Part shown: one piece after another, positions 3,677 to 57,623 of the stretch | Numbering within the stretch: the stretch's first letter is position 1 | Layout: every line of letters starts with the position of its first letter | Source of the DNA: Candidatus Eiseniibacteriota bacterium | Lineage (GTDB): Bacteria > Eisenbacteria > RBG-16-71-46 | Length of the DNA stretch: 64,000 nucleotides | NCBI GenBank assembly: GCA_963725865.1 | Contig: CAVSAC010000014.1 | Coordinates: 389,298-453,297 of the forward strand | Direction: 5' to 3' | Position numbers and translations under genes: made by a program | The notes under the pieces: generated by a model | Databases searched by the model: none | Told to the model about the DNA's origin: nothing | What the model saw: the letters and a program-made list of their open reading frames with translations, nothing else

Positions 3677-4020
3677 GTGACTACCTCCATCGTCGCAATG
3701 CATGGGCAATGCGAAGTCTTCCGAAGTACGGATTGCGAGCGAGGTGTCTCAGAAAACAAAGCCGCCGACGGGTCTCGAATGAATCTCATGCGAGAACTCC
3801 CTCGGCAGTCTGCTGCACGAGTACCGATCCCCCCTTTCCGCTGTCGCGCTCGGACCCTTAGGCAGTTCGGGCCGCACGCGACACTGTGATTGCGCGTGAA
3901 CTCGTACGGAGTCGACATGAAGCGGCACGCCGCTGCCAGCGCATCGGACCATGACGACCGCGGAACTCGAGGTGCATCTGGGGGTTTTCAAGACGCACCA
4001 ACTACCCCAGCACGAGTCAG

Positions 4021-4052
4021 AGGCTAGGCCCCCTGACAGGGTTCTGTCAATC
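4021..4052 (-). promoter_or_regulatory. Candidate sigma70-like promoter (minus-strand TTGACA, 18 nt spacer, TAGCCT) embedded in a TGACAG-N4-CTGTCA palindrome, ~350 nt upstream of the giant secreted gene
   Basis: A 6-bp-arm palindrome (CTGACAGggttCTGTCAA) overlaps the -35-like hexamer. It sits in the only lower-GC intergenic stretch (3700-4088). Confidence 0.2.
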
Positions 4053-4087
4053 CGTTTTTTTGCTGGGACTTGGCAGGATAGCCCGGT

Positions 4088-5395
4088 TCATGTCGAGAGT
4101 CTGACACGCCGCGCCGCGATCGAGTCCAGCCACTGTGGGTCCTGGCTCGCCACCATCACCGGCGTCGTGAGCGAATGGCGCAGAATCGCGGCGGCAGCGG
4201 CGGCCCGCCGTGAGCGGTCGAGCCCGGCGGTCGGCTCGTCCAGCAGCAGCAGTCCGGCCGGCGCCGTGAGGGCCCCGACCAGCTGGACCACCCGCTTCTC
4301 GCCGCCCGAGAGCCCCCACACGCGCCGCCCCTCGAGGGCGCCGCAGCCGAGCTCCTCCAGCAGGGCAACGGCTGTATCGACCGCAGCTTGGCGCTTCGCT
4401 CCTCGCTGGACGGCGGCCCACGTCACTTCGGCCAGAACCTGCTCTTCGAAGATCTCGTGTTCCGGGTACTGGGTCGCGAGCAGCGGTGGATCCTCGAGGG
4501 TTCGCCGCCAGTCCACCCGCACCTGAGGCAGCTCGATCGCACCGGCGATCGCGGCGAGCAGGACGCTCTTGCCGGCGCCATTGGGCCCCTCGAGGGCGGT
4601 CACGCCGGCGGCGGCCACCTCGATCGAGAGCGGAGCGGCGACGGGCACCCGCGGACCGTGGCAGGACGGCGGCGGGGCAACCTCGACGACGACGAGCGCG
4701 GGTTGGACACCCGGAGGCCCGGACTCGGCCCGGAAGGCCGGGTGGCTCACCCCATCGAGTTCGCCGATGATGAGTTCGCGATGCGCCGCCGCGCGCTCCT
4801 GTGGGTCCTGGGTCACCCAGACCAGCGCGAGTCCCTCGGCCACTTCCTGACGCAGGACCTCGAGCACCCGACCGCGGGTTGCGGCGTCGAGATGCGCCCC
4901 CGCCTCGTCGGCGATCAACAGCCGCGGCCGCGCCGCGAGCGCCGCAGCGAGGAGCACCAACTGTTGCCGGCCGGCGGAGAGTTCGCGCGGGTCGCGTTCC
5001 AGGTCCGCCGTGAGGTCCAACTGCTCCGACAGTCGCGCGATCTCCCGCGCGACCTCGCCGGGCGCGCGTCCGAGATTGCGCGGCGCCATTGCGAGTTCCG
5101 CGGCGACCGTCGACTGGAGGAGCTGGATCCCCGGGTCCTGCATCACCACCGCGACCGCCGCGCGCGCCGCGGCGGGCGCCCCCGGCTGCAACGGTCGCCC
5201 CTCGAACTCCACGACGCCGCGCTGCGCGGGCCACAGTCCGCCCAGCACCATCGCCAGCGTGGTCTTGCCACCCCCGTTGGGCCCGTGGAGCGCGATCCAC
5301 TCGCCGGCGCCCACCTCTAGAGAGACGCCCCGGACCGCGGGGTCCGGGGCTCCGGGCGGCGCGGCCCACACGTCGCGGGCACTCAGGCCACTCAC
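4088..5395 (-). CDS. Fused tandem ABC ATPase of ECF-transporter type (EcfA-EcfA'/CbiO-like), two nucleotide-binding domains in one polypeptide
   Basis: Two Walker A motifs (GPNGGGKTT, GPNGAGKS), two signature motifs (LSAGRQQ, LSGGEKR) and a Q-loop QYPEHEIF. GTG start overlaps the larC stop (GTGA). Confidence 0.75.
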   Translation of the reverse strand: MSGLSARDVWAAPPGAPDPAVRGVSLEVGAGEWIALHGPNGGGKTTLAMVLGGLWPAQRGVVEFEGRPLQPGAPAAARAAVAVVMQDPGIQLLQSTVAAELAMAPRNLGRAPGEVAREIARLSEQLDLTADLERDPRELSAGRQQLVLLAAALAARPRLLIADEAGAHLDAATRGRVLEVLRQEVAEGLALVWVTQDPQERAAAHRELIIGELDGVSHPAFRAESGPPGVQPALVVVEVAPPPSCHGPRVPVAAPLSIEVAAAGVTALEGPNGAGKSVLLAAIAGAIELPQVRVDWRRTLEDPPLLATQYPEHEIFEEQVLAEVTWAAVQRGAKRQAAVDTAVALLEELGCGALEGRRVWGLSGGEKRVVQLVGALTAPAGLLLLDEPTAGLDRSRRAAAAAAILRHSLTTPVMVASQDPQWLDSIAARRVRLST

Positions 5396-6573
5396 GCGTC
5401 CTGGCCCTCCGAGCGCCAGGCCGCGAGCGCCGCTTCGGCCACCTCGCGCCACGGACGCCCCGCGCGCTCGGCCGCCGCGCGTACCGATTCGAACTCCGGT
5501 ACCGCTCGCTCACTCCCGTCGGGCAGCGTCGCGATCTTCAGCGCCACCGCGCCGAAGGCCGTCGCGACCTCCGCGGCGCGCCGCGGCAGCTCCACGCGCT
5601 CCTCGTGACGCATGCGCACGCCGAGCGTGCCGGTTTCGGTGAGCAACCGGCGGGCGAGTGCCTCGGCCTGGTGTGGCTCGGCGATCACCACCAGCCACAG
5701 ACCGGGGCGGCCCTTCTTCATCACTGTGGGCACCACCATCGCGTCGAGCGCGCCCTCCGCGAGCAGCCGTGGGATCAGCGCGCCCACCACCTGTGGATTC
5801 TCGTCGTCGAGCGAGGTTTCGAGCACCGTGACCGCGCGCCGCTCGAGCCCTGCGTCTCCGGTGTTGCCGATGAGGATGCGCAGCACGTTCGGCTGTTCCG
5901 CCAGCTCGCGCCCGCCGGCACCCAGTCCGACGCGCTCGAGCGTGTACGTGGGCGGTGGGCCCCACGTGTGCACCAGCGTGGCGAGCAGCGCGGCGCCGGT
6001 CGGCGTGACCAGTTCGGCGCGCACGTCGGTGGGCGCGATCGGGATTCCCTGCACCAGCAGCGCGGTCGCCGGTGCCGGCACCGGCATGCGGCCGTGCTCG
6101 CACTCCACGGTGCCGTTGCCGAGCGGCAACGACGAGGCGAACACGCGCTGGACACCGAGCGCCTCCAGGCCGAGCACGGTACCCACCACGTCCACGATGG
6201 CGTCCACGGCGCCGACCTCGTGGAAGTGCACCTGCTCGACGGTCGTGCCGTGCACGGTGGCCTCCGCCTCGGCCAGGCGGCGGAACACCGCGCGGGCCCG
6301 CGCGCGCACCGTCTCCGGCAGGTCGCCGGCGTCGATCATCGCCTCGATGTGCCGCAGATGACGGTGCGGCTGACCGCCCGCGGCATTCACCTCGACCCGC
6401 GTGGCCTCGAGCGCGCCGCGTCGCGCGCGACCCACGGTGACCGTGGCGCCTGCGAGCTTCAGGCGCGCCGGCAGCGCCACGAGCTCCGCGGCCGGCCAGC
6501 CCGCCGCGACCAGGGCCGCGAGGCACATGTCCCCGCTCACCCCGGAGAAGCAGTCGAAGTACGCGATCCGCAT
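5392..6573 (-). CDS. larC: Nickel-pincer nucleotide cofactor nickel-insertion protein LarC (DUF111 family)
   Basis: Hallmark N-terminus MRIAYFDCFSGVSGDM. Full length 393 aa with the expected C-terminal domain. Confidence 0.8.
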   Translation of the reverse strand: MRIAYFDCFSGVSGDMCLAALVAAGWPAAELVALPARLKLAGATVTVGRARRGALEATRVEVNAAGGQPHRHLRHIEAMIDAGDLPETVRARARAVFRRLAEAEATVHGTTVEQVHFHEVGAVDAIVDVVGTVLGLEALGVQRVFASSLPLGNGTVECEHGRMPVPAPATALLVQGIPIAPTDVRAELVTPTGAALLATLVHTWGPPPTYTLERVGLGAGGRELAEQPNVLRILIGNTGDAGLERRAVTVLETSLDDENPQVVGALIPRLLAEGALDAMVVPTVMKKGRPGLWLVVIAEPHQAEALARRLLTETGTLGVRMRHEERVELPRRAAEVATAFGAVALKIATLPDGSERAVPEFESVRAAAERAGRPWREVAEAALAAWRSEGQDA

Positions 6574-6607
6574 GTCGTCCCCCAGGCCGCCGCGTCGTCG
6601 CCGCGCG

Positions 6608-7393
6608 TCAGCCGCGCGCGCGTCGGCCCCCGGCGACCGCGCGCCGGACGTTCGCGGTGTTCACCAGATGGGCGGCGTAGCCGGCCCCGAATCCGTTGTC
6701 GATGTTCACCACGGTCACGCCGGCCGCGCACGAATTGAGCATCGCGAGCAACGGCGCGAGGCCGTGGAAGTGCGCGCCGTAGCCGACGCTGGTCGGCACC
6801 GCGATCAGCGGCCGGTCGGTGAGTCCGCCCACCACGCTCGCGAGCGCGCCCTCGAGTCCCGCCACCACCACCAGCACGCGGGCGCCGCGCAGCTTCTCGC
6901 GATGCGCGAGCAGCCGGTGGAGCCCCGCCACCCCGACGTCGGCGACCAGTTCCGCGCGACTGCCCAGGGTGCGCGCGGTCACGAGCGCCTCCTCGGCGAC
7001 CGGCAGGTCCGCGGTTCCCGCGCACAGCACCACCACGCGGCCGATCGCACGGCCCGCGCGCCGGCGCACCACGACGGCGCGCGCGCGCCCCCACACCTCG
7101 GCGCGCGGGAACGCCGCGCGCAACCGTGCCTGGGCGTCCTCGCTCGCGCGCGTCACCAGCACCACGCCATGGCGCGCATACAAGCGCTGCACGATGGCCA
7201 CGATCTGCGCCGGCGCCTTCCCCTGGCCGAACACCACTTCGGGGAAGCCGGTGCGCAGCGCGCGCTGGTGGTCGAGGGTCGCGAACTCGAGCTGCTCGAA
7301 CGGCGCCTCGCCGATGGCCTGGGCCGCCGCGCCGACCGAGACGGCCCCACGCCGCACGCGGCCGAGCAGGCGCTTCAGGTCATCCGGTCGCAC
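6608..7393 (-). CDS. larB: LarB, PurE-like pyridinium-3,5-biscarboxylic acid mononucleotide synthase
   Basis: PurE/AIR-carboxylase-like core (VVVLCAGTADLPVAEE...VVVAGLEGALASVVGGL...IAVPTSVGYG) with the N-terminal extension typical of LarB. GTG start overlaps the dus stop. Confidence 0.7.
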   Translation of the reverse strand: MRPDDLKRLLGRVRRGAVSVGAAAQAIGEAPFEQLEFATLDHQRALRTGFPEVVFGQGKAPAQIVAIVQRLYARHGVVLVTRASEDAQARLRAAFPRAEVWGRARAVVVRRRAGRAIGRVVVLCAGTADLPVAEEALVTARTLGSRAELVADVGVAGLHRLLAHREKLRGARVLVVVAGLEGALASVVGGLTDRPLIAVPTSVGYGAHFHGLAPLLAMLNSCAAGVTVVNIDNGFGAGYAAHLVNTANVRRAVAGGRRARG

Positions 7394-8423
7394 GCGCGTC
7401 CTCCAGGTCGCGGGGCGGGTCCGCCGCCGCGAGCCCGCCGCGCTCCAGTTCGGCCAGGTAGCCGCGCAGCAGAGCGACCATCTCCTCGACCGAGCGGGTG
7501 TGGTTGACCTGCTCGCGCACGCGCGCGCTGTGCGGCAGGCCCTTGATGTACCACGCGACGTGCTTGCGCATCTCGCGCGCGGCCGACTCCGGACCCACCG
7601 CTTCGACGAGCATCCCGAGGTGGCGCACCCCGGCTTCGAGGCGCGCGGCCGCGGTCGGCGGCGCCAGCACCTCGCCGCGCTCGTGGAACGCGCGCAGGCG
7701 CCGGAACACCCACGGGTCACCGAACGCCGCGCGGCCGAGCATCACGCCGTCGCAGCCGGTGGTGGCGAGCATGCGGAGCGCGTCCTCGGGCCCGCGCACG
7801 TCCCCGTTGCCGATCACCGGGATCCTCACCGCCTGCTTGGCCGCGCCGATCATGTCCCAGTGCGCGTGGCCCTCGAACTTCTCCGAGCGCGTGCGCGCGT
7901 GGATCGCGACCGCCGCGGCCCCCGCGTCCTCGAGCGCGCGGCTCACCTCGACGACGTTCGTCGAGGAGCCGTCCCAGCCGAGCCGGATCTTGGCGGTGAC
8001 GGGCACGGTGGCGACCGCTCGCATCGCGGTGACGATCGCGTGGATGCGCGAGACGTCCTGCAACAGCGCGGCGCCCGCGCAGCGGTTGACCACCTTGCGC
8101 ACCGGGCAGCCCATGTTGATGTCGATGAGGTCCGGCCGGCGCTCCGGCGGCAGGTCGCACAGCACGCGCGTGGCGTCGGCCATCACGGCCGGATCGGAGC
8201 CGAACAGTTGGATGCCGATCGGGCGCTCCTCGGGCGCGAACGCGATGTAGTCGAACGTGGCGCGCTGGCCGCGCACGAGCCCGTCGGAGGACACCATCTC
8301 GGTGTACACCGCGGCCGCGCCCTGCTCGCGTGCGAGCCGCCGGAACGGCGAGTCGCTCACCCCCGCGAGCGGCGCGAGGAGGAAGGGCGATTCGAACTGG
8401 AGGGAGCCGATGCGCAACGACAT
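7380..8423 (-). CDS. dus: tRNA-dihydrouridine synthase
   Basis: MSLRIGSLQFESPFLLAPLAGVSD...DINMGCPVRKV...KIRLGWD. FMN/TIM-barrel Dus signature. Confidence 0.8.
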   Translation of the reverse strand: MSLRIGSLQFESPFLLAPLAGVSDSPFRRLAREQGAAAVYTEMVSSDGLVRGQRATFDYIAFAPEERPIGIQLFGSDPAVMADATRVLCDLPPERRPDLIDINMGCPVRKVVNRCAGAALLQDVSRIHAIVTAMRAVATVPVTAKIRLGWDGSSTNVVEVSRALEDAGAAAVAIHARTRSEKFEGHAHWDMIGAAKQAVRIPVIGNGDVRGPEDALRMLATTGCDGVMLGRAAFGDPWVFRRLRAFHERGEVLAPPTAAARLEAGVRHLGMLVEAVGPESAAREMRKHVAWYIKGLPHSARVREQVNHTRSVEEMVALLRGYLAELERGGLAAADPPRDLEDARATG

Positions 8424-8454
8424 GTGGGGTCCGATGCCCGGGGTCTCGAGCGAT

Positions 8455-9123
8455 TCAGCCGCGCGGGGGCACGCCGGCGGGCCGGCGCCGCGCCCAGTCG
8501 GCGATGTCGGCGAAGGTCTCGAACGGTACCGCGGCCAGTCGTTCGCGGCGGCACCACTCCAGCAGTCCACGATGAGCGAGCACGGTCTCGGCGGCGCGGG
8601 CACCGCAGCGGTCGGAGAGGCCGTCGCCGACCAGCACCGTGTGGTAGCCGAGCGCGCGGTAGCGACGCACGTGCTGGGCCTTGCAGTTGCCGCATTGTCC
8701 GCAGCCGCCCACCAGATACGGGAACTCCGGCACCGCGCGGCCGCCCTCGAAGCGCAGGCGGTTCGCGGCGTAGGGCAGTTCGCCGAGGCCGGCCCGCTGC
8801 AGTTGATCGCGCACGTAGAGGTCGAACCCCTCGCTCACGACCATCACGGCATCCCCGCGACCGAGCGCCTCGCGCGCGAACGCGGCGAAATGCTCGTCGA
8901 TCCGGAAGCTCCGCGTGAACTCGAGTGCCTCGGCCTCGGCCACCCGCACGTCGGCGCACTGCGCCTCGGTCAGCTCCCGGTGTCCGATGCCGCCCGCGAA
9001 CCAGCGGTCGAGCAGCCGCTGGTGGGCGGCCGAGTCCCCGGTCGAGAACCGCCTCACGAGCGCGGCCCCGATGTCGGACGGCGACACGGTGCCGTCGAAA
9101 TCGCACAGGTACGCGTAGGGCAT
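8455..9123 (-). CDS. HAD-superfamily (subfamily IB, MtnX-like) phosphatase
   Basis: N-terminal HAD motif I CDFDGTV, 222 aa. Tightly packed between the S41 protease and dus. Confidence 0.5.
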   Translation of the reverse strand: MPYAYLCDFDGTVSPSDIGAALVRRFSTGDSAAHQRLLDRWFAGGIGHRELTEAQCADVRVAEAEALEFTRSFRIDEHFAAFAREALGRGDAVMVVSEGFDLYVRDQLQRAGLGELPYAANRLRFEGGRAVPEFPYLVGGCGQCGNCKAQHVRRYRALGYHTVLVGDGLSDRCGARAAETVLAHRGLLEWCRRERLAAVPFETFADIADWARRRPAGVPPRG

Positions 9124-9125
9124 GT

Positions 9126-10745
9126 TCAGTGCGAGGCTCCGGCCGCGATCGGCGCCGGCGCGGCCGCCAGCGGCGCACGCGCGGCCGGCGTCAGGACGGC
9201 GAACACGTCGCGCGCGCCCCGGGCGCGGCGCAGCACGGCCAGCGCGCGCTCGAACACGGCATCACCTTCGAGCGCGACCTTCGCGCCGGCCGCCTCGCCC
9301 TCGGTGCGGCGGGCCAGCTCGCGGCGCAGCGCGCGCTCCAGCAGCGGGCGCTCGGCGGTCTGCTCGGCCGCGTCGCCGGGCAGCCGCTCCTGGCTCAGGA
9401 AGTCCTCGAAGCCGCGGCGCATCGCGTCGTCGATCGTCGCATGCGCGCCGGGGTGGGTGGTGACCCAGCGGCTCGCGAAGCGCAGCGCGAGCCCGCGTCG
9501 CTCGACCTCGCGCGCCAGCGGCGGAAGCGAGTCCGGCGTGATCTCGAGATCCGGCGCGATGCCGCCGCCACCGTAGACGATGCGCCCCGACTTGGTGCGG
9601 AATTGCGGTCGTTCCGCGGCGGCACCGGCAGGCGTGGAGTCCGCAGGGCTGTCGGAGTCGTCCTCCTCGTCCACGCTCCCCTCGCCCGGGCGCGGGCCGC
9701 GGTGGATCGAGCGACCGCTCGGCGTGAAGTAGAGCGCGGTGGTGAGCTTGACCGCCCCGTTGCCGCCCGGCAGTGGGAACACGCTCTGCACCGAACCCTT
9801 GCCGAACGACGTCTGACCCACGACCAGCGCGCGGTCGAGATCCTGGAGCGCGCCGGCCACGATCTCGGAGGCCGAGGCCGTGCCCCGGTCGATCAGCACC
9901 ACCAGCGGGGCGCTCACGTCGGCGCGCGCGTCGGCCGCGGAGTAGCGGGCGTCCGCGCCGCGGGCGCGGCCGTCGGTGTACACCACCAGCGCGCCGCGCG
10001 GCAGGAACTGCTGCGCCACGCTCACCGCCTGGTCGAGCAGCCCGCCCGGATTCAGGCGCAGGTCGAGCACGAACGCGCGCGCGCCCTGGCGCCGCAGCGC
10101 GCCGAGCGCGGCCTGCAGCTCGGTCGCCGAGGTCTCCGAGAAGCTCGCGAGGCGCACGTAGCCGATCCCCGGCTCCGCCAGGAAGGCGTACGGCACGCTC
10201 TTCGTGTGGATGGTGCGGCGCGTGAGGGTGAGCTCGCGCTCGGTGGACTCGCCCTCGCGATCGATGGACAGGCTCACCGTGGACCCCTCGGGTCCGCGCA
10301 GCAGGTTCGCGATGTCCTCCATGGCGAGCCCCGCCGTGCTCTTGCCGCCGATCCGCACGATCACGTCGCCGGCGCTGATCCCCGCCTCCCATGCGGGAGT
10401 GCCCTCGATCGGAGCGATCACGGTCGGGAAGTTGTCGCGGATGCCGACCACCGTGCCGATCCCGTCGAACGAGCCCTGCGCGCTGCTCTGCAGCAGGCCG
10501 TACGACTTGGCGTCGAGGTACTGCGAATAGGGATCGAGGTCGCGCAACATGCCGCGCATCGCGCCGGAGACCAGCTTCTGGGGATCCACCGGATCGACGT
10601 AGTTCTGGTCGACCTTGTGGAGCACCTCGATGAACAGGTCGAGATTGCCGTAGAGGCCGCCCGCAGCGCCGCCGCGCCCCGCCCACCAGCCGAGCACGAA
10701 GAGCAGGACGAACAGAGCAGCGAGGAGTGCGCGAGTGCGGATCAA
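9126..10745 (-). CDS. ctpA: Carboxyl-terminal processing protease (S41 peptidase with PDZ domain), N-terminal membrane anchor
   Basis: PDZ region (GDVIVRIGGKSTAGL), S41 catalytic region (LVVLIDRGTASASEIVAGALQD...GQTSFGKGSVQS). TTG start with AGGAGAGG RBS. Confidence 0.8.
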   Translation of the reverse strand: MIRTRALLAALFVLLFVLGWWAGRGGAAGGLYGNLDLFIEVLHKVDQNYVDPVDPQKLVSGAMRGMLRDLDPYSQYLDAKSYGLLQSSAQGSFDGIGTVVGIRDNFPTVIAPIEGTPAWEAGISAGDVIVRIGGKSTAGLAMEDIANLLRGPEGSTVSLSIDREGESTERELTLTRRTIHTKSVPYAFLAEPGIGYVRLASFSETSATELQAALGALRRQGARAFVLDLRLNPGGLLDQAVSVAQQFLPRGALVVYTDGRARGADARYSAADARADVSAPLVVLIDRGTASASEIVAGALQDLDRALVVGQTSFGKGSVQSVFPLPGGNGAVKLTTALYFTPSGRSIHRGPRPGEGSVDEEDDSDSPADSTPAGAAAERPQFRTKSGRIVYGGGGIAPDLEITPDSLPPLAREVERRGLALRFASRWVTTHPGAHATIDDAMRRGFEDFLSQERLPGDAAEQTAERPLLERALRRELARRTEGEAAGAKVALEGDAVFERALAVLRRARGARDVFAVLTPAARAPLAAAPAPIAAGASH

Positions 10746-10857
10746 GACCTCTCCTGAAGCGGCTCCGGACCGGGCGGACGCGGGTCCGCCGGGAGGAGCC
10801 GGCGGACGAAGAGCGCACGGACTATAGCACAGCGCCGCGCGGCGGCCGGGCCCCGGC

Positions 10858-12456
10858 TCAGCGCCCGGCCGCGGGCGGGAGCGCGCCGCGAGCGGCCTCG
10901 AACAGCATCGCTTCGACGGTGGCCGCGGTGCGCTCGACATCGGGCGGCAGCGGGCCGAGCGCGCGCGCGCGCGTCAGACAGCGCCGCGCCGCGAGCGGAT
11001 CTCCCGCCGCCAGCCAGCCCTGGCTGGCGAGCAGCAGGTGGCGCGGGTTCGGCAGGATCGCGCTCGCGCGCTCGAAGTGACGCGCCGCCGTCCCGAAGTC
11101 ACGCTGCGCCGCGGCGCGATACGCGAGGTAGGTGAGTGCGTGGTTGCGCTGCTCGGCCGGCGGGGCCCATGCCCCGTCGACCAGCGCGAGCGCGCGGCGC
11201 TCACCGGCCCCGGCGTCGGCGTTCACCGCGACCCAGCCGAGCGCCTGCAGGGCGAGCACCGGGAGCAGCCAGCGGAGCGCGCGCTCCAGTCGCGCCGTCG
11301 GGACGCCTCCGAGCAGCGACGCGGCGCCGGCGCTCGCGAGCAGGCCGGGCAGCGCCACCAGGTCCCAGTCCCGCATCGCGCCCATGCCATGCGGCGCGAC
11401 CGGAAACACCAGCAGCAGCGGAGCCAGTGGCACCAGCGCGGAGAACGCGAGCGCGCCGCGCGGCGAGCGCGCGAACGCGGCCAGCGCGTCGCGCCCGGCC
11501 GCGAGCGGCGCGATCACCGCCAGCGGCAGCGCCAGCGCCACCAGGTTCACGAGGTCCCAGGGCGGCGTGAGCCGCAGGTCCCGCGCGGACAGACTGCGCA
11601 GCAGATCGCCCGCGTCGCGGCCGAGCGTCGCTCCACCCGGCAGCGCGGCCGCCGCGAGGGCGAGTACTGCGGCCGCCAGCGTGAGCCCCACGTGCAGGCG
11701 CCGCACCGCGCGGCGGTCGTCGGCGAGCGCGGGGCCGAACCCGCGCCAGGCCTGCGCGATCAGCAGCACCAGGGCGAGCCGGTGGGCGAGCAGCAGCAGC
11801 AGCCACAGCAGCGCGGTGCGCACCGCATCGCGGGGATGCGCGAGCGGGCGCAGGAGCACCGCCCACCACCACGCGGCCACCGCGAGCGCGAGCGCCCAGG
11901 CTTCCGCGTAGCCCGCGAACGCCTGCAGCGTCCCGGCCAGCAGCAGCGCCAGCGTCAGGGAGCGCCGCCGGTCGGCCGGGGCACTCGCGGCCACCACGCT
12001 TCGCACGCCGGCCGCGTACAGCAGGAACAGCGCCAGCCCGATCACCGCGATCGCGGTCGGGATCGACCACCCGAGCCGCGCCAGGATCAGCGGCAGCGTG
12101 ACGTTCACGAGGGCGTCGAGCGGCTGCGCGTGCAGGAAGCGCGCGAACGCGGCCAGATCCCAGCCGCCGGCGCCGCGGTCGGCGAGGGCGATCAGCGTGC
12201 GGAAGCGCATCTCGGTGTCGCCGAGCAGATGGGGCTGCTCGCGGAGTGGGAACGCGAGCGCCAGCCCCAGCGCGGCCACGATCGCCGCGAGCGGCACCCG
12301 CGGCAGCCGTGCCGCCGCCGCGAGCGCCACGCATCCCACCACCAGGGCCGCGGCCATCGCGGGACGGACGGAACGCAATCCGTCGAGCGCCCAGACCAGA
12401 TTCGAGGCGGGCGGGGCGACGGCCAGCACCGCGAGCCACGCCAGCGTGAGGACCAT
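10858..12456 (-). CDS. Polytopic inner-membrane protein with C-terminal TPR repeats (function unknown)
   Basis: Multiple hydrophobic helices followed by a TPR-like C-terminus (YLAYRAAAQRDFGTAARHFERA...). An alternative GTG start at 12522 overlaps the tmk stop. Confidence 0.5.
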   Translation of the reverse strand: MVLTLAWLAVLAVAPPASNLVWALDGLRSVRPAMAAALVVGCVALAAAARLPRVPLAAIVAALGLALAFPLREQPHLLGDTEMRFRTLIALADRGAGGWDLAAFARFLHAQPLDALVNVTLPLILARLGWSIPTAIAVIGLALFLLYAAGVRSVVAASAPADRRRSLTLALLLAGTLQAFAGYAEAWALALAVAAWWWAVLLRPLAHPRDAVRTALLWLLLLLAHRLALVLLIAQAWRGFGPALADDRRAVRRLHVGLTLAAAVLALAAAALPGGATLGRDAGDLLRSLSARDLRLTPPWDLVNLVALALPLAVIAPLAAGRDALAAFARSPRGALAFSALVPLAPLLLVFPVAPHGMGAMRDWDLVALPGLLASAGAASLLGGVPTARLERALRWLLPVLALQALGWVAVNADAGAGERRALALVDGAWAPPAEQRNHALTYLAYRAAAQRDFGTAARHFERASAILPNPRHLLLASQGWLAAGDPLAARRCLTRARALGPLPPDVERTAATVEAMLFEAARGALPPAAGR

Positions 12457-12524
12457 CAGCGCGCGCGACGTCCGCGCCTCGGCGCCCGCGACCGATGCGA
12501 CCGGGCGAGCGGAAACGCCCACGC

Positions 12525-13163
12525 TCACGCCTTCCGGCCGGCGCCCACCAGTCGTGGCTCGAGCACCTCCCACGCGCGGGTCTCGAGCAGGTCGGGGCCC
12601 TGTCGCGCATCCAGCGTCACCCAGCGGCGGGGCTCGGCGGCGGCGAGCGCACGATAGGCATCGTGCACGCGAGTGTGGAACGCGAGGTCCTCGCGATCGA
12701 GCCGGTTCGTGTCGTCGGCGGCGCCCGCGCGGCGCGCGAGCCCGACCTCGGGCGCGAGGTCGAACCACAGCGTGAGATCGGGCGCCAGCCCCCCGGTCGC
12801 CACGCGATTCCATTCGGCGAGCATCGCGCGATCGAGTCCGCGACCGCCACCCTGGTAGGCGAGCGTCGAGTCGGCGTAGCGGTCGCAGAGCACCACGCGC
12901 CCCTGCGCGAGCGCGGGGCGGATCACCGCGGCGACCAGATCGGCGCGCGCCGCCTCCATGAGCAGCGCCTCCGACACCGCGCCGGGTGCGAGCGACGGCG
13001 TGAGCAGCAGCGCGCGCACGCCCTCGGCGAGCGGCGTGCCGCCGGGCTCGCGCGTCAACAGCGGATCGTGGCCGGCGGTGCGCAGGCGCTCCGCCAGCCG
13101 GCGGAGCACCGTGGTCTTGCCCGAGCCCTCGCCGCCCTCGAAGGTGACGAAGAGCCCGGGCAT
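12525..13163 (-). CDS. tmk: Thymidylate kinase
   Basis: MPGLFVTFEGGEGSGKTT P-loop and LID region. ~212 aa. Confidence 0.85.
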   Translation of the reverse strand: MPGLFVTFEGGEGSGKTTVLRRLAERLRTAGHDPLLTREPGGTPLAEGVRALLLTPSLAPGAVSEALLMEAARADLVAAVIRPALAQGRVVLCDRYADSTLAYQGGGRGLDRAMLAEWNRVATGGLAPDLTLWFDLAPEVGLARRAGAADDTNRLDREDLAFHTRVHDAYRALAAAEPRRWVTLDARQGPDLLETRAWEVLEPRLVGAGRKA

Positions 13164-13188
13164 CCGTCGCTCCGCGTGGCCCACGCGC

Positions 13189-14418
13189 TCAGCGCGCGCG
13201 GCCCGCCTTCGCCTTCGCGCGCCGGGCCGGCTTGCGCGCCGCGGTTGTGCGCGCCTTCGGTCCGGAACCGTTCACGGCGGGGCCCGTGGTCGGCGCGGCC
13301 TCGCGCTGGACGGTCGGCGCCTTGATGCGCAGCGACCGCTCGACGCCCTTCGGGTCGCGGATGAACGCTTCGGTCAACTCGCGCGCGGCGTCGTCCGGGA
13401 TCTGCACCGGCGGCGACTTCTTGAAGTACGACGACGGCGCGATGAGCGCGCCCTTGAGGCCGTGGTCGAGCCCGATCTTGGCGCAGCGCACCGCATCGAT
13501 CACCACGCCGGCCGAGTTGGGCGAGTCCCAGACCTCGAGCTTGAGCTCCAGGTTGAGCGGCACGTCACCGAACGTCGTGCCCTCCATCCGGATGTGGCAC
13601 CACTTGCGGTCCTTGAGCCACGGGATGTAGTCGCTGGGGCCGACGTGGATGTCGTCCTCGTGCAGCTCGTACGGCATGATGCTGGTGACGGCGCGGGTCT
13701 TCGAGATCTTCTTCGACTCGAGGCGCTCGCGCTCGAGCATGTTGAGGAAGTCGGTGTTGCCCCCGAAATTGAGCTGATACGTGCGGTCGATGCGCACCGC
13801 GCGGTCCACGAACAGCCGCGTCAGCACGCGGTGGGTGATGGTCGCGCCGACCTGCGACTTGATGTCGTCCCCGATCACGGGCAGCCCGCGCTTCTCGAAC
13901 CGCCGCTGCCAGTACGGCTCGCGGGCGATGAACACCGGGATGCAGTTCACGAACGCGCAGCCGGCCTCGAGCACCTGCTCGACGTACCACTTGGTGGCCT
14001 CCTCGGAGCCCACCGGCAGGTAGTTCACGACCACGTCGGTCTGCGTGTCCCTGAGCAGCTTCACGATGTCGACGGTGGAGCCCGGCGCCTTCTGGATGAT
14101 CTGCGAGAGGTACTTGCCGAGCCCGTCGTGCGTCATGCCGCGCTGCACCGTCACGCCCATCTTGGGCACCTTGGTGAACACGAACGTGTTGTTCGGCCAT
14201 TCCACGATGGCCTGCGAGACATCCTTGCCCACCTTGTTCTTGTCGATGTCGATGGCGGCCACGATCTCGACGTCGCGGATGTGGTATCCGCCGAGGTTCG
14301 CGTGCATGAGCCCCGGGATGCGGTCGCTCTCCTTGGCATTGCGGTAGTAGTGGAGCCCCTGCACGAACGAGGACGCGCAATTGCCCACACCGATGATCGC
14401 GACTCGGACCTTGCCCAT
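13189..14418 (-). CDS. ino1: myo-Inositol-1-phosphate synthase (archaeal/bacterial short type)
   Basis: [21 protein letters not shown] Rossmann N-terminus and the conserved catalytic core. 409 aa with a basic C-terminal tail. Confidence 0.85.
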
Positions 14419-14432
14419 CGAGACCGAACCTC

Positions 14433-15161
14433 CTATCCGTCCTGACCCGCTCCGCGGGTGATCTTCCAAACGTGGACGACGCGCTGCGCCGCCGTGATGA
14501 ACGAGAGCAGCGCCAGCAACAGCAGTGCGCCGGACATCGCCCAGAACACCTTGAGCAGCCCCGCCAGGATGAGCAGCGCGAGCCGCTCCGGGCGCTCGAA
14601 CCAGCCCACCTTGCACGCCAGCCCGAGCCCCTCGGCCCGCGCCCGCGTGTACGACACCATGAACGAACCCAGCGCGGCGACCATCGCGGTCACGGCGAGC
14701 AGCGCCCAGGTCACCGGCAGCAGGCCCATGGCAGCCTGCTCGAGCACGCGCCGGGGATCGAACACGAGCGCCAGCAGGTTGCGGATGTAGAAGCCCGCGA
14801 TGCCGATCAGCACCGCGCCTTCGGCGACGCGGTCGAGCGTGGAATCGAAGAACGCACCGAAGCGCGTCTCACCCCCCGAGCCGCGCGCCACCTGTCCGTC
14901 GAGGATGTCGCAGAGCCCGGCCAGCAGCAGGAACACCGCGCCCAACTGTGGGTGCGCGTCGAAGAACGCGTACGCCGCCAGCAGGCTGAGCAGCAGCCCC
15001 GCCACCGTGAGGTGGTTGGCGCGGATGCCCACGCCCACCAGCCCGCGCACCACCGGGTCGAGCACCGCGTGCGCGCCGACGCGCAGGCGCGCCTTGAGCG
15101 CCTGCAGCGCTCCCGCGCGCGGCGGCGCCGGCGTGCCGGAGACGGCCTGGCGCACGGTCAC
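14433..15161 (-). CDS. CDP-alcohol phosphatidyltransferase (phosphatidylinositol-phosphate / inositol-phosphate synthase-like)
   Basis: CDP-OH_P_transf motif D-G-x2-A-R...G...D ([28 protein letters not shown]), ~6 TM segments. GTG start overlaps the rsmI stop (GTGA). Confidence 0.75.
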
Positions 15162-15904
15162 GCTCCCGCCTCGTCCTTGCGCGTCCACCCCCCGAGCACC
15201 AACACCATCTCGCCTCGTCTCTGGTCGGGCCGCAGCGCCGCGCGCACCTCGCTCGCGGTCCCGCGCAGCACCTGTTCGTGCACCTTCGTCAGCTCGCGCG
15301 CCAGCGCGATGGGCCGCTCGCCCCAGACCGCCTCGAGATCCTCGAGGCACGCCACGATGCGATGCGGCGATTCGAACGCCACCAGCGTCTCGCGCCGGTC
15401 GCGCCACTCCTCCAGGCGGCGGCGGCGCGCCGCGCCCTTCACCGGCAGGAACCCCACGAACGTGAACGCGTCCGTCGGCAGTCCGCTGACCTGGAGCGCG
15501 GCGATCACCGCGCTCGGCCCCGGCACGCTCTCGACCCGCACGCCCGCGGCGACTGCGGCCCGCACCAGCGGATACCCTGGATCGCTCACGCCCGGCGAGC
15601 CCGCGTCGGTCACCAGGGCGACCGAGTCGCCCTCCTCCAGCCGCCGCAGCAGACCCGGGATGCGCGCGCGCTCATTGTGCTCGAACACGCTGGTGACCGG
15701 CACCGACAACCCGAAGTGCTCGAGCAGCCGCCGCGTGTGACGCGTGTCCTCGGCGGCCACGAGCGCCACCTCGCCGAGCACGCGCAGCGCGCGCCGGGTG
15801 ATGTCCTCGAGATTGCCGATGGGGGTCGCCACCAGGAACAGAGTCCCCGGCGGCCGCGCGTCGGTCACAGATGTCCTTAGAGCCCGCGGGTGCCCCGCAG
15901 TCAT
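15158..15904 (-). CDS. rsmI: 16S rRNA (cytidine1402-2'-O)-methyltransferase
   Basis: LFLVATPIGNLEDITRRA...TDAGSPGVSDPG tetrapyrrole-methylase fold. 248 aa. Confidence 0.85.
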   Translation of the reverse strand: MTAGHPRALRTSVTDARPPGTLFLVATPIGNLEDITRRALRVLGEVALVAAEDTRHTRRLLEHFGLSVPVTSVFEHNERARIPGLLRRLEEGDSVALVTDAGSPGVSDPGYPLVRAAVAAGVRVESVPGPSAVIAALQVSGLPTDAFTFVGFLPVKGAARRRRLEEWRDRRETLVAFESPHRIVACLEDLEAVWGERPIALARELTKVHEQVLRGTASEVRAALRPDQRRGEMVLVLGGWTRKDEAGA

Positions 15905-16022
15905 GTCGGAAACCGGCGCAAGGTAGCACCGGGGCCCCGGCGACGTCTACTGACGGCGCGCCGGGACCGCGCGCGGGTGGCGTCGGTGCGCCGAGCGCGA
16001 CCGCTCCGGTCCGCCGCGGGAG

Positions 16023-17087
16023 TCAGCGTGCGGCCGCCCGCTGCGCCTCGACCGCCGCGCGGAATCCGGTGATCGCGCGGTCGATGCCCGCGTCGTCCAC
16101 GTCGAGATGCACGATCGCGCGCAGGCGGCGGGCGCCGAACGCCACCATGCGGACGCCGCGCTCGCTGAGCGCGGCGAGCACCGCGGCCGGATCGAGCGAC
16201 GGATGCTCGAGCGCGACGATCACGATGTTGGTCTCGGGCGTCGCCACCTTCACCCCGGGCACCGCACCGAAACCGCTCGCGAGCCGGCGCGCGCGCGCGT
16301 GGTCCTCCGCCAACCGCTCGACGTGGTGATCGAGCGCGTGCAGGCACGCGGCCGCCAGGATGCCGACCTGCCGCATGCCGCCGCCCCAGCGCTTGCGGGT
16401 CCGGCGCGCGGCGCGCACCACGTCGGCGGGTCCCACGAGGATCGAGCCGATCGGCGCCCCGAGGCCCTTCGAGAAGCACATCATCACGGTGTCCGCGCAC
16501 GCCGCCCAGTCGCGGATGGGAATCCCGCTCGCCACGCTCGCGTTCCACAGCCGCGCCCCGTCGAGGTGCACGCGCATGCGGTGCGCGCGCGCCGCGGCCG
16601 CCAGGTCGCGCAGCGTGTCGAGCGGCACGATGACGCCGCCGTGACGGTTGTGCGTGTTCTCGAGGCAGAGCAGCGAGACCCGCGCCACGTGCTCGTCGGC
16701 CGCATCACGCACCGCGGCGTCGATCTCCGCCGCGTCGAACGTCCCGTGCACGCCCCGCACCGGGTGTGCGAGGCAGCCGGAGTTCGCCGCGATGCCACCC
16801 TGCTCGTACAGCAGGATGTGCGCCTCGGCCTCCAGCACCACTTCGTCACCCGGGCGTGTCAGCGCGTTCACCGCGAGCTGATTGCCCATGGTGCCGCTCG
16901 GCACGTACAGCGCGGAATCCTTGCCCGCGAGCTCCGCGACGCGGCGCTCGAGCGCCTGGACGGTGGGATCGTCCCCGAACACGTCGTCCCCCACCACGGC
17001 CTCGGCCATCGCGCGTCGCATCGCGGCGGTCGGGCGTGTGACGGTGTCGCTGCGCAGATCGACGGCGGGCAGGGTCGTGGAGGACAT
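16023..17087 (-). CDS. ltaE: Low-specificity L-threonine aldolase
   Basis: [20 protein letters not shown]...GTMGNQLAV...[12 protein letters not shown] (PLP Lys). 354 aa. Embedded in a longer spurious ORF. Confidence 0.8.
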
Positions 17088-17375
17088 GGATCCGACTCCG
17101 GAGGGGGTGAGCGACGACCGAGCAAGGTCCGCGCAGGATACGACATCGGGCGCCGACCGCCGCCGAGCGCCTCGGCGGCTGGACCGAGACTTGACACGAA
17201 GCGCTTCCGGATGCCTTTTCATGGGTGCCGCACGTCTCGTGCGAGCGCGCGCGGCGCGCCCGGAACGATTCCGGGAAACCAGCGGCCGCCGCCCCGCATC
17301 CTGACGGGCGACGCGCCGTGGACGGCGCTCCGCCCGGATCTCCCGGCGGAAGAACCACCGAAGGAGTGATGCGAC

Positions 17376-18074
17376 GTGTTCCCCATGTTCGGCTTCGATC
17401 CCACCTTCCTGCTGCTCATCCCGGCGATGATCTTCGCCATGTGGGCACAGTGGAAGGTCCAGAGCACGTACGCGCGGTATGCCCGGGTGCCCGCCGGCAA
17501 TGGGATGACCGGTCGCCAGATGGCGGCGGCGATCATGAACCGCAACGGCGTCAATGACGTGAAGATCGAGCCGGTCGGTGGAACGCTCAGCGACCACTAC
17601 GACCCGCGCTCGAAGACGGTGCGGCTTTCGGAGCCGATCTACGCCGGCGACTCGGTATCGGCGATCGCGGTCGCGGCGCACGAAGTCGGGCACGTGCTCC
17701 AGCACGCGCAGGGCTACGCGCCGCTGGCGTTGCGCGCGAGCCTGGTGCCGGTCGCGAACTTCGGCAGCATGCTCGCCATGCCGCTGTTCTTCATCGGCTG
17801 GTTCTTCGGTCGTGGCCAGCTCGTGTGGCTCATGGACCTCGGCATCCTGTTCTTCGCGGCCGCAGTGGTGTTCCACCTGGTGACGCTGCCGGTGGAGTTC
17901 GACGCCTCGAAACGGGCGCTCGCGCAGTTGACGAGCAGCGGCGCGATCGCGCCCGGCGAGGTCGCGGGCGCCAGGAAGGTGCTGAACGCGGCGGCGCTCA
18001 CCTATGTGGCGGCGGCCGCGATGTCGGCGCTGCAGCTGGTGCGGCTGCTGATGCTGCGCGACAGCCGGCGCTGA
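17376..18074 (+). CDS. Membrane-associated putative neutral zinc metallopeptidase (Zn_peptidase_2 family)
   Basis: HEVGH zinc motif ([11 protein letters not shown]), hydrophobic N- and C-terminal segments. Confidence 0.7.
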
Positions 18075-18098
18075 CGGCGCATCGGCGCCCAACGGGAC

Positions 18099-18128
18099 GG
18101 GGCGGGCTCTCGTGCGAGAGCCCGCCCC
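18099..18128. terminator. Perfect 13-bp-stem hairpin between convergent Zn-peptidase and HU genes (bidirectional terminator candidate)
   Basis: GGGGCGGGCTCTC-gtgc-GAGAGCCCGCCCC. Confidence 0.5.
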
Positions 18129-18168
18129 GAAGTCGTTGTGCGGCGCGGATCGAGGGGCCGCCCCGCGC

Positions 18169-18447
18169 TCAGCCTTGGGCGACCATGTCCTTCAGTTCCT
18201 TGGACACCTTGAACACCGGGACCTTGCGCGCCGCGACCGGCACGGCTTCGCCCGTCCGCGGGTTGCGAGCGATGCGAGGCTTGCGGTCCTTCACGCGGAA
18301 GGTCCCGAAGCCGCGGATCTCGATGTGGTGGCCGTTCGCGAGCGCCTTGGCGACCGCGGATAGGAACGAGTCGACGGTCTCGGCGACGTCCTTCTTGGTC
18401 AAACCCGTACGCTCTGCGATCTGGTCCACGATATCGGCTTTGGTCAT
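18169..18447 (-). CDS. hup: Nucleoid-associated DNA-binding protein HU/IHF family
   Basis: [26 protein letters not shown]...[23 protein letters not shown]. 92 aa. Confidence 0.85.
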
Positions 18448-18574
18448 TCCATCCTCCTCGAGCCGGCGGCCTGGGGTTCCCGCCCTGGTCGATACCCCGG
18501 CGAAGTCGACGGCAGGCTAGCAAGCCACACGAAGGCGTGTCAATGCCTTCATGGACAAGGCCTTGGGCCGTTCC

Positions 18575-19534
18575 TTACCGCCCCCCGCCCTCTTCCGGGC
18601 CCGCGCCGAGTGCGCGCCGGCGGGCCGCTTCGATGGGATGAGCCTGCGCACGCGCCTGAGCGGCCCGCATGCGAGGCCGGCCTGCGGCGTCCTCCGCGCG
18701 CCATTCGCTGGCGAACGCGCCGCTACGGATCTCGGCCAGGATCTCCCGCATGGCGGAACGCGCGGCCGGGCCGATCACGCGCGGACCGCGGGTGAGATCG
18801 CCGTAGAGCGCGGTGCCGCTGATGCCCTCGCGCATGCCGCTGACGCCGCGCGCGTGCAGCGCCTCGGCGAGGTAACGCAACTGGTGGACGCACTCGAGGT
18901 AGGCGACCTCGGGCGCGTAGCCGGCCTCGACCAGGGTCTCGAACGCCGCCGTCACCAGTGCGTTCATGCCGCCGCACAGCACGGTCTGCTCGCCGAAGAG
19001 GTCGACCTCGGTCTCCTCGCGCACCGTCGTGCTCCAGGTGGGCGCGCATCCGATGCCCGCCGCCCAGGCCGCGGCGAGCGATGCGCCGGTGCCGCTCGCG
19101 TCCTGGTGCACGGCGAGGTAGGCCGGCAGCTTCTCACCGCGCGCGACCGCGGCGCGCAGCACGGCGCCCGGCGCGGTCGGCGCCACCAGCACCACGTCCG
19201 CGCGCGGCGACAGCGCGAGATCGGAGTACAGGAGATTGAATCCGTGCGCGAACACGAACCCCGCGTCCGCGCGCGCCGCGCCGGCGAGGGCTCCCCACGC
19301 CGCGGGCACCGCCTCGTCCGGCAGCAGCACCGCGATCACCTCGGCGTCCCGCGCTGCGATCTCCGGCGGCCGGATCTCGAAGCCGTGCGCGCGAGCGCGC
19401 GCCTCGGCCGCGCGGCCCGGACGCGCGCCGACCAGCACGCGGTGCCCCGCGTCGCGCAGGTTGAGCGCCTGCGCCTCGCCCTGGTGCCCGAAGCCCACGA
19501 TCGCCAGCGTCGCGCCCTCGAGTCGTCCGCTCAT
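18575..19534 (-). CDS. ilvC: Ketol-acid reductoisomerase (class I)
   Basis: LAIVGFGHQGEAQALNLRDAGH NADPH site and conserved C-terminal knotted domain. 319 aa. Confidence 0.85.
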   Translation of the reverse strand: MSGRLEGATLAIVGFGHQGEAQALNLRDAGHRVLVGARPGRAAEARARAHGFEIRPPEIAARDAEVIAVLLPDEAVPAAWGALAGAARADAGFVFAHGFNLLYSDLALSPRADVVLVAPTAPGAVLRAAVARGEKLPAYLAVHQDASGTGASLAAAWAAGIGCAPTWSTTVREETEVDLFGEQTVLCGGMNALVTAAFETLVEAGYAPEVAYLECVHQLRYLAEALHARGVSGMREGISGTALYGDLTRGPRVIGPAARSAMREILAEIRSGAFASEWRAEDAAGRPRMRAAQARAQAHPIEAARRRALGAGPEEGGGR

Positions 19535-24884: not shown

Positions 24885-25280
24885 CTAGGCCTGCATGCGG
24901 TTCGGGCTGGACTGCCCGAGGATCGCGTTGATGCGTTCGACCAGCTTGCGGGGGCTGAACGGCTTGGTGATGTAGTCGTCCGCTCCCACCTCGAAGCCGA
25001 TCTTCTGGTCCACGTTGCGGCCCTTCGCCGACAGCAGGATGACCGGGATCTGCTTGGTGTTGTCGTCCGCCTTCAGCAGCTTGCAGGTCTCGTAGCCGTC
25101 CAGCTTCGGCATCATGATGTCGAGGACGATGAGATCGGGATGCTCCGCTCTCGCCTTCTCGAGTGCCTGTTCGCCGTCCAGCGCGGTCAGGACCTCGTAG
25201 CCCTCCATGCCGAGACTGAAGTCCAGGATGTGCACGATGTAGATCTCATCGTCCACCACCAGGATCTTTCCCTTCGCCAT
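24885..25280 (-). CDS. Stand-alone response-regulator receiver domain (CheY-like)
   Basis: ILVVDDE...LIVLDIMMPKLDGYE...ILLSAKG...DDYITKPF. 131 aa, no output domain. Confidence 0.8.
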   Translation of the reverse strand: MAKGKILVVDDEIYIVHILDFSLGMEGYEVLTALDGEQALEKARAEHPDLIVLDIMMPKLDGYETCKLLKADDNTKQIPVILLSAKGRNVDQKIGFEVGADDYITKPFSPRKLVERINAILGQSSPNRMQA

Positions 25281-25286
25281 TGCGAC

Positions 25287-54256: not shown

Positions 54257-54366
54257 GGAGCCGCCTCCGTCGGAAACGGATGTCGGACCGCCGGCGTCGC
54301 CCGGTGGGGGACGCGCGGAGTCGTGAACGCGGAGTGGAGACCGCGGCGCGGGCCGCGGCGGAGCGT

Positions 54367-56283: not shown

Positions 56284-56294
56284 GGAGGTCCGCC

Positions 56295-57621: not shown

Positions 57622-57623
57622 TC

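Follow-up and report, generated by a model that had tools for sequence, protein, structure and literature searches.

Can an uncultured soil bacterium of the phylum Candidatus Eisenbacteria make inositol phospholipids? The question is raised by a pair of genes in a stretch of 64,000 nucleotides (positions 389,298 to 453,297 of contig CAVSAC010000014.1 from a Candidatus Eiseniibacteriota bacterium; hereafter the window). One gene encodes a myo-inositol-1-phosphate (inositol-3-phosphate) synthase (MIPS), and the other encodes a CDP-alcohol phosphatidyltransferase. Among Bacteria, inositol lipids are considered rare, and most characterised examples come from Actinobacteria and Bacteroidota (Heaver et al. 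2022, PMC9246714). [quoted passage not shown] As described below, it is quite likely, judging from sequence comparisons and a structure model, that the pair is a two-gene module of the prokaryotic inositol-phosphate route to phosphatidylinositol (PI). In the predicted scheme, MIPS would convert glucose-6-phosphate to L-myo-inositol-1-phosphate, and the transferase would combine this product with CDP-diacylglycerol to form phosphatidylinositol phosphate (PIP) and CMP. This second step would take place at the di-metal DxxDG…D…D site of a six-helix membrane enzyme, where arginines equivalent to R155 and R195 of Mycobacterium tuberculosis PgsA1 (MtPgsA1) would hold the substrate phosphate. Finally, PIP would be dephosphorylated to PI by a phosphatase.

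The transferase resembles PIP synthases

The window has a GC content of 72%, and, as judged by third-position GC, the minus strand is the coding strand of the locus. The transcription order is rsmI, the transferase gene, the MIPS gene, and tmk. The transferase gene (15161..14433, minus strand) encodes 242 amino acid residues and matches PF01066 with 58.5 bits (cut-off 22); a public gene call (P0001) has the same sequence and length. The MIPS gene (14418..13189, minus strand) encodes 409 residues and matches PF01658 with 128.7 bits (gathering score 27). It starts with ATG after a spacer of 14 nucleotides (14432..14419, minus strand) which carries a GGAGG ribosome-binding site. The gene coordinates and identities of the earlier note, including the rsmI and tmk surroundings, agree with these profile matches. 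Its order of MIPS followed by the transferase is correct in plus-strand coordinates, whereas the transferase gene comes first in the direction of transcription.

Is the transferase an inositol-phosphate transferase or a phosphatidylglycerophosphate synthase (PgsA)? Clustering with PgsA had been named in the earlier note as the outcome that would speak against an inositol route, and this was assessed by profile scores and by the ranking of structure and fold matches. The gathering score, the signature sequence, and the six-helix fold of the model place the protein among class I CDP-alcohol phosphotransferases (PF01066). The top-scoring curated model was that of archaetidylinositol-phosphate (AIP) synthase (AIPS; NF040950), with 156.3 bits against a cut-off of 180. 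The PIP synthase (PIPS) model NF045883 gave 124.4 bits (cut-off 170), and the model of the Bacteroides BT_1523-type PIP synthase (NF052561) gave 113.7 bits in two stretches (cut-off 350). The score was 41.4 bits for the DIPP synthase model NF041135 (cut-off 580), 30.6 and 29.2 bits for the PgsA models TIGR00560 and NF008090 (cut-offs 109 and 304), and 21-26 bits for the phosphatidylcholine, cardiolipin, and phosphatidylserine (PS) synthase models (cut-offs 107-300). All of the PgsA, PssA, and Pcs models lie within 21-31 bits.

The structural comparisons gave the same ranking of PIP synthases over PgsA. In a sequence search of the PDB, the best match was MtPgsA1 (6h53, 1.3e-21), and the actinobacterial PIP synthases as a group (MtPgsA1/Rv2612c and the Renibacterium salmoninarum and Mycobacterium kansasii enzymes) fell between 1e-21 and 5e-16. 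A model computed with AlphaFold2 from 50 homologues (pLDDT 89.3, pTM 0.82) consists of a juxtamembrane helix and six long helices, the same class I fold as that of the actinobacterial enzymes. When this model was compared with the PDB by Foldseek, the top 14 matches were all PIP synthases (E 1e-8 to 5e-7), with 29-33% identity and a TM-score of up to 0.79 on the target. AF2299 and DIPP synthase followed at a fold E of about 1e-5 (4e-5 to 7e-6; 5e-4 by sequence), and the PgsA and PS synthase matches had an E of about 0.1, including Staphylococcus aureus PgsA (7drj, E 0.1, 16% identity). The actinobacterial PIP synthases are thus the best matches in the PDB in both sequence and fold. These results support the assignment of the transferase to the inositol-phosphate transferase type and not to PgsA. 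Most of the close homologues are named 'CDP-diacylglycerol--glycerol-3-phosphate 3-phosphatidyltransferase' (PgsA) in the JGI data, and this naming is contradicted by the profile and structure comparisons.

A soluble product had also been offered in the earlier note, and it is disfavoured by the same data. If the product were a soluble inositol phosphodiester, for example di-myo-inositol phosphate, one would expect the transferase to be a DIPP synthase acting on CDP-inositol, and its detectable relationship to DIPP synthase and AF2299 would fit. However, the DIPP synthase score is 41 bits against a cut-off of 580, and the closest structures are lipid-donor enzymes. No nucleotidyltransferase domain (inositol-1-phosphate cytidylyltransferase, IPCT) is fused to the transferase or present among the about 45 window open reading frames (ORFs) scanned against Pfam. 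Moreover, di-myo-inositol phosphate is a solute of hyperthermophiles, and the named relatives come from groundwater and other mesophilic habitats. A soluble end product is extremely unlikely.

Does the top rank of an archaeal model indicate an archaeal type of lipid? The transferase might use inositol-1-phosphate, the acceptor that it would share with AIP synthase, together with another lipid donor, or the end product might differ from plain diacyl-PI. Ether-linked or other CDP-activated lipids would be examples, and PI might be only an intermediate for inositol-phosphoceramide (IPC) or glycosylated inositol lipids. The 156-bit match to the CDP-archaeol-dependent AIP synthase would agree with this explanation, as would the PimA-like, PatA-like, and PHP genes of related clusters, in which PI would be processed further (see below). 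It is also known that PI feeds inositol sphingolipids in Bacteroides (PMC9246714). However, archaeal and bacterial proteins are not told apart by the AIPS model, which gives 131-178 bits on many clearly bacterial ones. When 1.84 billion cluster representatives were searched, 5676 relatives of the transferase were detected at E ≤ 1e-3, and 2143 remained at the stricter limit of E ≤ 1e-10. Ten medoids from the best 150 relatives scored 142-178 bits with the AIPS model and 128-161 bits with the PIPS model, none of them above either cut-off. Thus, sub-threshold scores are shared by a very large group and are not peculiar to the window transferase. The best medoid (P0160, 178 bits with the AIPS model) adjoins lgt, lspA, and a PlsC-type acyltransferase gene. 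Because P0160 sits among bacterial lipoprotein genes, the AIPS model does not imply archaeol. The host of the window transferase, unlike that of AIP synthase, is not an archaeon with CDP-archaeol but a bacterium, as seen from rsmI, tmk, and a TonB-dependent receptor, and from lipoprotein-type genes around its relatives. The scanned window ORFs and the Eisenbacteria loci revealed no gene for PimA, for an IPC synthase, or for sphingolipids or ether lipids. I consider another donor or end product unlikely.

Active-site residues and an insertion

The hallmarks of PIP synthases are the four motif aspartates, R94, R155/R195, S132, Y133, K135, R137, and P153 in the MtPgsA1 numbering (PMC6506517, PMC4634129). 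R155 and R195 are the phosphate-binding pair for inositol phosphate, R94 is conserved among inositol-phosphate users, and P153 sits at the lipid entrance (PMC6506517, PMC4634129). Does the window transferase have these residues? Its CDP-alcohol phosphotransferase signature (residues 85-110; 14832..14909, minus strand), which occurs nowhere else in the window when all six frames are translated, has the form D85-x2-D88-G-x2-A-R-x8-G-x3-D106-x3-D110 and reads DILDGQVAR-x8-G-AFF-D-STL-D. It is followed by R111. In a HMMER alignment, D68, D71, D89, D93, and R94 of MtPgsA1 correspond to D85, D88, D106, D110, and R111, and S132, Y133, and R137 correspond to S170, Y171, and R175. The R152-P153-E-R155 sequence and R195 are found as R190-P191-E-R193 and R227. 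The K135 position is occupied by R173, a conservative replacement. An alignment of the window transferase with 80 homologues from genome loci revealed that the signature is invariant in all 81 sequences, as are the arginines and aspartates, including R111, R193, and R227.

Several features distinguish the window transferase from the actinobacterial PIP synthases. The identity is about 30-33%, the score is below the PIPS cut-off, and an Asn residue occupies the D31 position. In addition, about 20-25 extra residues (about residues 125-150; 14712..14789, minus strand) are inserted between transmembrane helices 3 and 4. This insertion, which splits the profile hidden Markov model matches into two stretches, is present in the Eisenbacteria copies displayed and absent from the displayed copies of Gemmatimonadota, Latescibacterota, and Zixibacteria. 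In the model, it forms an extension of transmembrane helix 3 and a short helix (136-144). By analogy with the known topology of the family, the insertion lies on the membrane side opposite the active site.

As a separate observation, another clade of relatives (P0151, P0163, P0194, and P0156) has a PIPS-like transferase domain fused C-terminally to a long TPR-rich protein. The end of the TPR-rich protein of P0151 resembles, by eye only, a lytic-transglycosylase-type region.

The inositol-phosphate synthase

The MIPS gene product was compared with solved MIPS structures. It matches M. tuberculosis Ino1 (1gr0) with 477 bits (residues 3-353 against 15-365) and is 60% identical to it over the aligned core in a pairwise alignment. 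The other solved MIPS structures match far less well, and a five-membered cyclitol-phosphate synthase lies much farther away (193 bits). The gathering score and the full-length similarity to a crystallised MIPS place the protein in the MIPS family (PF01658; EC 5.5.1.4). The mycothiol-type Ino1 model TIGR03450 gives 528.3 bits, below its cut-off of 638. Thus, the protein is a MIPS but not the actinobacterial equivalog.

The protein has a C-terminal extension (residues about 354-409; 13192..13359, minus strand) which is rich in Ala, Arg, Lys, and Pro, strongly basic, and not present in M. tuberculosis Ino1. All of the 120 closest MIPS homologues have such an extension, with 38-126 residues after the core motif. 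It begins with a conserved segment, DPKGxERxLR..APTVxRE, and continues as the Ala/Arg/Lys/Pro-rich tail, the distal part of which has a median net charge of +16. A possible role of the extension would be to anchor the enzyme at anionic membranes or nucleic acid.

When the window MIPS was the query of a protein search, most of the matches were unnamed, and the named ones were mainly from Eisenbacteria. A search with a Zixibacteria MIPS returned proteins of methanogens, Nitrospirae, and Planctomycetes. The Zixibacteria MIPS (L079:8657-9676) is 75-79% identical to those of Methanosarcinales (Methanolobus) and 76% identical to a Nitrospirae MIPS. It belongs to another sublineage than the window MIPS, being 79% identical to the Methanolobus MIPS and 56% identical to that of the window. 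This suggests an inter-domain transfer of the Zixibacteria type. A horizontal transfer of the window MIPS from Actinobacteria was also considered and is unsupported, with 60% identity to M. tuberculosis Ino1 against 56-59% to the archaeal/Nitrospirae type.

Conservation of the gene pair

Is the pairing common? The named relatives are overwhelmingly metagenome-assembled genomes of Candidatus Eisenbacteria. In all 19 Eisenbacteria genome loci, the MIPS gene follows the transferase gene with a gap of 5 to 41 nucleotides, and in a further locus (L087) the two genes overlap by 4 nucleotides. Wherever the contig extends far enough, rsmI is found upstream and tmk, ctp, and a HAD-IB gene downstream. 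In a Zixibacteria locus, the MIPS gene likewise follows the transferase gene.

Metagenome contigs were then scanned with a MIPS alignment, which gave 80 loci with a MIPS 73-88% identical to that of the window and a locus GC of 0.46-0.73. In 51 of these, a homologue of the transferase with 28-65% identity is encoded in the vicinity, without exception on the same strand. The other 29 comprise 27 loci with short flanks and 2 with ample flanks. Three gene orders were found: transferase–MIPS in 24 loci (8 of which also have rsmI and/or tmk at the flanks, like Eisenbacteria), MIPS–one gene–transferase in 17, and MIPS–transferase in 3. Even the more divergent loci L095, L100, and L104 retain rsmI–transferase–MIPS–tmk–ctp. 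The pairing of MIPS with the transferase is not due to chance.

Where examined, the gene between MIPS and the transferase encodes an orthologue of PimA, the PI-specific mannosyltransferase. It matches M. smegmatis PimA (2gej, 4n9w) over the full length with 213 bits, against 91 bits for the next GT4 protein, and a PimA-like gene is found in about 35 of these metagenome loci. Further loci have the order MIPS–lipid A-type acyltransferase (PatA-like)–PHP phosphoesterase–PimA–transferase. Examples of these clusters are L097:11118-12338 and L152:1245-6774, and others are L117, L135, L158, and L168. They share the MIPS type of the window (73-79% identity) and a transferase of the same family (28-46% identity), which scores in the same sub-threshold range (126-164 bits with the PIPS model and 131-157 bits with the AIPS model). 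They differ in the added PimA orthologue, lipid A-type acyltransferase, and PHP phosphoesterase, none of which is found in the window or in the Eisenbacteria loci. MIPS and PimA are recurrently linked to the transferase, and therefore the transferase family is wired to an inositol-phosphate supply and to a PI-consuming enzyme. This linkage is the strongest contextual evidence for a PI or PIP product. The clusters with MIPS and PimA, with or without PatA and PHP genes, imply PI-mannoside-type glycolipids outside the known producers.

The window pair may also be compared with two characterised systems. In Bacteroides thetaiotaomicron, one cluster encodes a PIP synthase (BT_1523), a PgpA-like PIP phosphatase (BT_1525), MIPS (BT_1526), and an IPC synthase (BT_1522) (PMC9246714). 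As in the window, a Gram-negative host of the Fibrobacterota–Chlorobiota–Bacteroidota (FCB) group has MIPS together with a transferase of the PIP synthase type, and a two-step route via PIP has been proposed. In contrast, the window transferase gives only 114 bits against the cut-off of 350 with the Bacteroides-type model, no PgpA-like phosphatase or IPC synthase gene lies near the pair, and the window MIPS is, among the solved MIPS structures, closest to M. tuberculosis Ino1. The mycobacterial arrangement is different again: the window transferase gene is coupled to MIPS between rsmI and tmk, unlike pgsA1 in the mycobacterial pgsA1-patA-pimA cluster.

A housekeeping gene block and its counterparts in other phyla

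How is the pair embedded in the window? The rsmI gene (15904..15158, minus strand) encodes the 16S rRNA (cytidine1402-2'-O)-methyltransferase (PF00590; TIGR00096, 230.7 bits, cut-off 167.9). Its TGA stop codon (15160-15158) and the GTG start codon of the transferase gene (15161-15159) share the 4-nucleotide sequence GTGA, so that the overlap claimed in the earlier note is indeed seen. The tmk gene (13184..12525, minus strand; dTMP kinase; TIGR00041, 151 bits, cut-off 83) starts with GTG 4 nucleotides past the MIPS stop codon. The overlapping or near-abutting frames suggest translational coupling inside a housekeeping transcription unit. Farther downstream on the same strand, there are an ORF for a multi-pass membrane protein of 552 residues (12516..10858), ctp for an S41 C-terminal processing peptidase (10940..9126; PF03572; TIGR00225, 305 bits), a gene for a HAD-IB family phosphatase (9123..8455; PF12710; TIGR01488, 52.8 bits, cut-off 45), and dusB (about 8603..7380). 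The co-directional block from rsmI through the transferase, MIPS, and tmk genes to ctp is probably co-transcribed. A scan of 7000-19000 for promoters and terminators found no promoter-like and one terminator-like site, fewer than in shuffled sequences, and is uninformative at 72% GC. Rfam and tRNA scans of the window gave no matches. The constitutive inositol-lipid production proposed in the earlier note would follow from this gene order only.

Is a similar block found outside Eisenbacteria? In 55 of 61 non-Eisenbacteria genome loci, mostly from Latescibacterota and Gemmatimonadota, the transferase gene is followed by tmk, and 53 of these also have ctp. The transferases of the two phyla are 40-45% identical to that of the window. 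In most of these loci, yidC–mnmE–rsmG precede transferase–tmk–ctp (L020-L078, about 3900-11000 per locus), and yidC–mnmE–rsmG is a classic origin-proximal housekeeping cluster. No MIPS gene was found within 8 kb of transferase–tmk in the Latescibacterota and Gemmatimonadota loci, and the MIPS-linked metagenome transferases all have at most 50% identity to the copies of these phyla. It was also found that L084:2059-3474 (P0249) is a single ORF of 471 residues in which a PIPS-like transferase is fused to dTMP kinase, in a block of rsmI–[transferase::tmk fusion]–ctp–dusB–larB–larC that has neither a MIPS nor a HAD-IB gene. The fusion and the adjacency of the transferase gene and tmk in three phyla could be a sign that the two are linked in function or in expression. 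Likewise, ctp is a conserved downstream partner of tmk in three phyla. Thus, the transferase–tmk–ctp backbone is old, and MIPS is found at the site in some lineages only.

These loci bear on another explanation, in which the transferase is a housekeeping anionic-phospholipid synthase for a different phosphorylated alcohol, such as a divergent PgsA using glycerol-3-phosphate, and the MIPS neighbour is incidental and supplies inositol for other purposes. The retention of transferase–tmk–ctp after yidC–mnmE–rsmG in the absence of MIPS, the fusion with tmk in a block without MIPS, and the lack of a canonical pgsA in the 64-kb window would all fit. Nevertheless, the PgsA models score only 29-31 bits against 156 bits, and the fold E-values are 0.1 for PgsA and 1e-8 for PIP synthases. 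The Latescibacterota copy itself is PIPS/AIPS-like (167, 154, and 141 bits, with only 30.5 bits for PgsA). Furthermore, the linkage of MIPS to the transferase recurs across many lineages in three or more gene orders; the two genes always share a strand, and PimA is often present as well. A divergent PgsA with an incidental MIPS is very unlikely.

The final dephosphorylation step

Which enzyme would convert PIP to PI? No gene had been assigned to the mycobacterial PIP phosphatase as of July 2026. The earlier note had called for a search for a PIP phosphatase and an IMP cytidylyltransferase, and neither was found among the about 45 window ORFs scanned, which showed no nucleotidyltransferase domain and no inositol monophosphatase. 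Thus, the complete set of MIPS, PIPS, and PIP phosphatase was not recognised among the scanned ORFs of the 64-kb window. The HAD-IB gene is the only phosphatase-like gene near the pair. It follows ctp in all 11 Eisenbacteria genome loci which reach that far. It occurs together with MIPS in L095 and, more distantly, in L116, both are absent from L084, and in the MIPS-containing L100 it is missing from the 2.4 kb that could be inspected. It thus accompanies MIPS in most, though not all, of the informative loci. The protein is a generic HAD-IB member; its best match, a distant one, is MtnX (2fea, 4e-9), the MtnX models give 57-69 bits, far below their cut-offs, and no other methionine-salvage gene lies nearby. 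The HAD-IB protein is a weak candidate for a PIP or inositol-phosphate phosphatase. As for the environmental clusters, 15 loci encode a PHP/PHP_C protein that may be regarded as a candidate PIP phosphatase, an enzyme long sought; the literature search gave no match joining 'PHP domain' and PimA among the matches listed.

Several points weigh against the synthesis of PI by the pair. The transferase lies below every curated equivalog cut-off (156 against 180, 124 against 170, and 114 against 350 bits), and it scores best with the archaeal model. Taken by themselves, the phosphate-binding arginines would be compatible with a different phosphorylated alcohol too. No MIPS gene lies near the transferase gene in Latescibacterota and Gemmatimonadota, and therefore the substrate of the family is not secured there. 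The about 45 window ORFs scanned include no PgpA-like, PAP2, or PHP protein. Literature searches found no enzymology or lipid analysis for the clade or the phylum, and those covering Eisenbacteria, PI among the polar lipids of Gemmatimonadetes, and MIPS in Gemmatimonas returned nothing relevant. On the other side, the profile ranking, the PIP synthase residues, the fold, and the conserved linkage all support the interpretation of the earlier note that the pair belongs to an inositol-phosphate route.

Other genes in the window

The membrane ORF of 552 residues between tmk and ctp has a TPR-like C-terminus and, apart from a weak TPR match, no match in Pfam, NCBIfam, or the PDB. A homologue at the same position was detected only in L002, and a single-sequence AlphaFold model was unusable (pLDDT 53). 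This ORF is probably not part of the pathway. Also encoded in the window are the plug domain of a TonB-dependent receptor and an OmpL-like beta-barrel porin. By these sequences the organism looks diderm, which fits the Gram-negative organism assumed in the earlier note.

Two large tandem hybrid proteins with HisKA–HATPase–GAF–HD_5 domains are encoded at 25287-30376 (minus strand), flanked by genes for a stand-alone receiver (24885-25286) and a receiver-GGDEF protein (30390-31502), both on the minus strand. These genes may form a cyclic-di-GMP signalling cluster. By Pfam matches, the region 54280-59709 (plus strand) encodes a Fer4_22 iron-sulfur protein, an NAD-binding/Fe-S subunit, and then the large subunit of a [NiFe]-hydrogenase (58216-59709), and a LarC-type nickel insertion protein is encoded at 5392-6573 (minus strand).

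Implications

Inositol sphingolipids have also been reported in Myxococcus, and Candidatus Eisenbacteria is not known to have a cultured member. The results extend the route of MIPS and a PIP synthase to this phylum, where it would be phylum-wide and placed within a housekeeping block. This is very probably a known pathway in a lineage where it has not previously been described; no new mechanism is involved. In the wider family, the 2143 clusters found at E ≤ 1e-10 lie just under the curated PIPS and AIPS thresholds and are therefore annotated generically or wrongly as PgsA, and some of these sub-threshold transferases have a strong genomic context for PI synthesis. The question arises whether PI is produced in Gemmatimonas, a cultured relative.

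A more far-reaching idea is that the PIP-synthase-like gene is a core housekeeping gene across a group of FCB phyla and that the HAD-IB protein encoded after ctp is the PIP phosphatase in Eisenbacteria. I regard this idea as speculative and somewhat improbable. If it is true, inositol phospholipids or a closely related lipid would be a basic, possibly essential, membrane constituent in these abundant and mostly uncultured bacteria of soils and sediments, as in mycobacteria.

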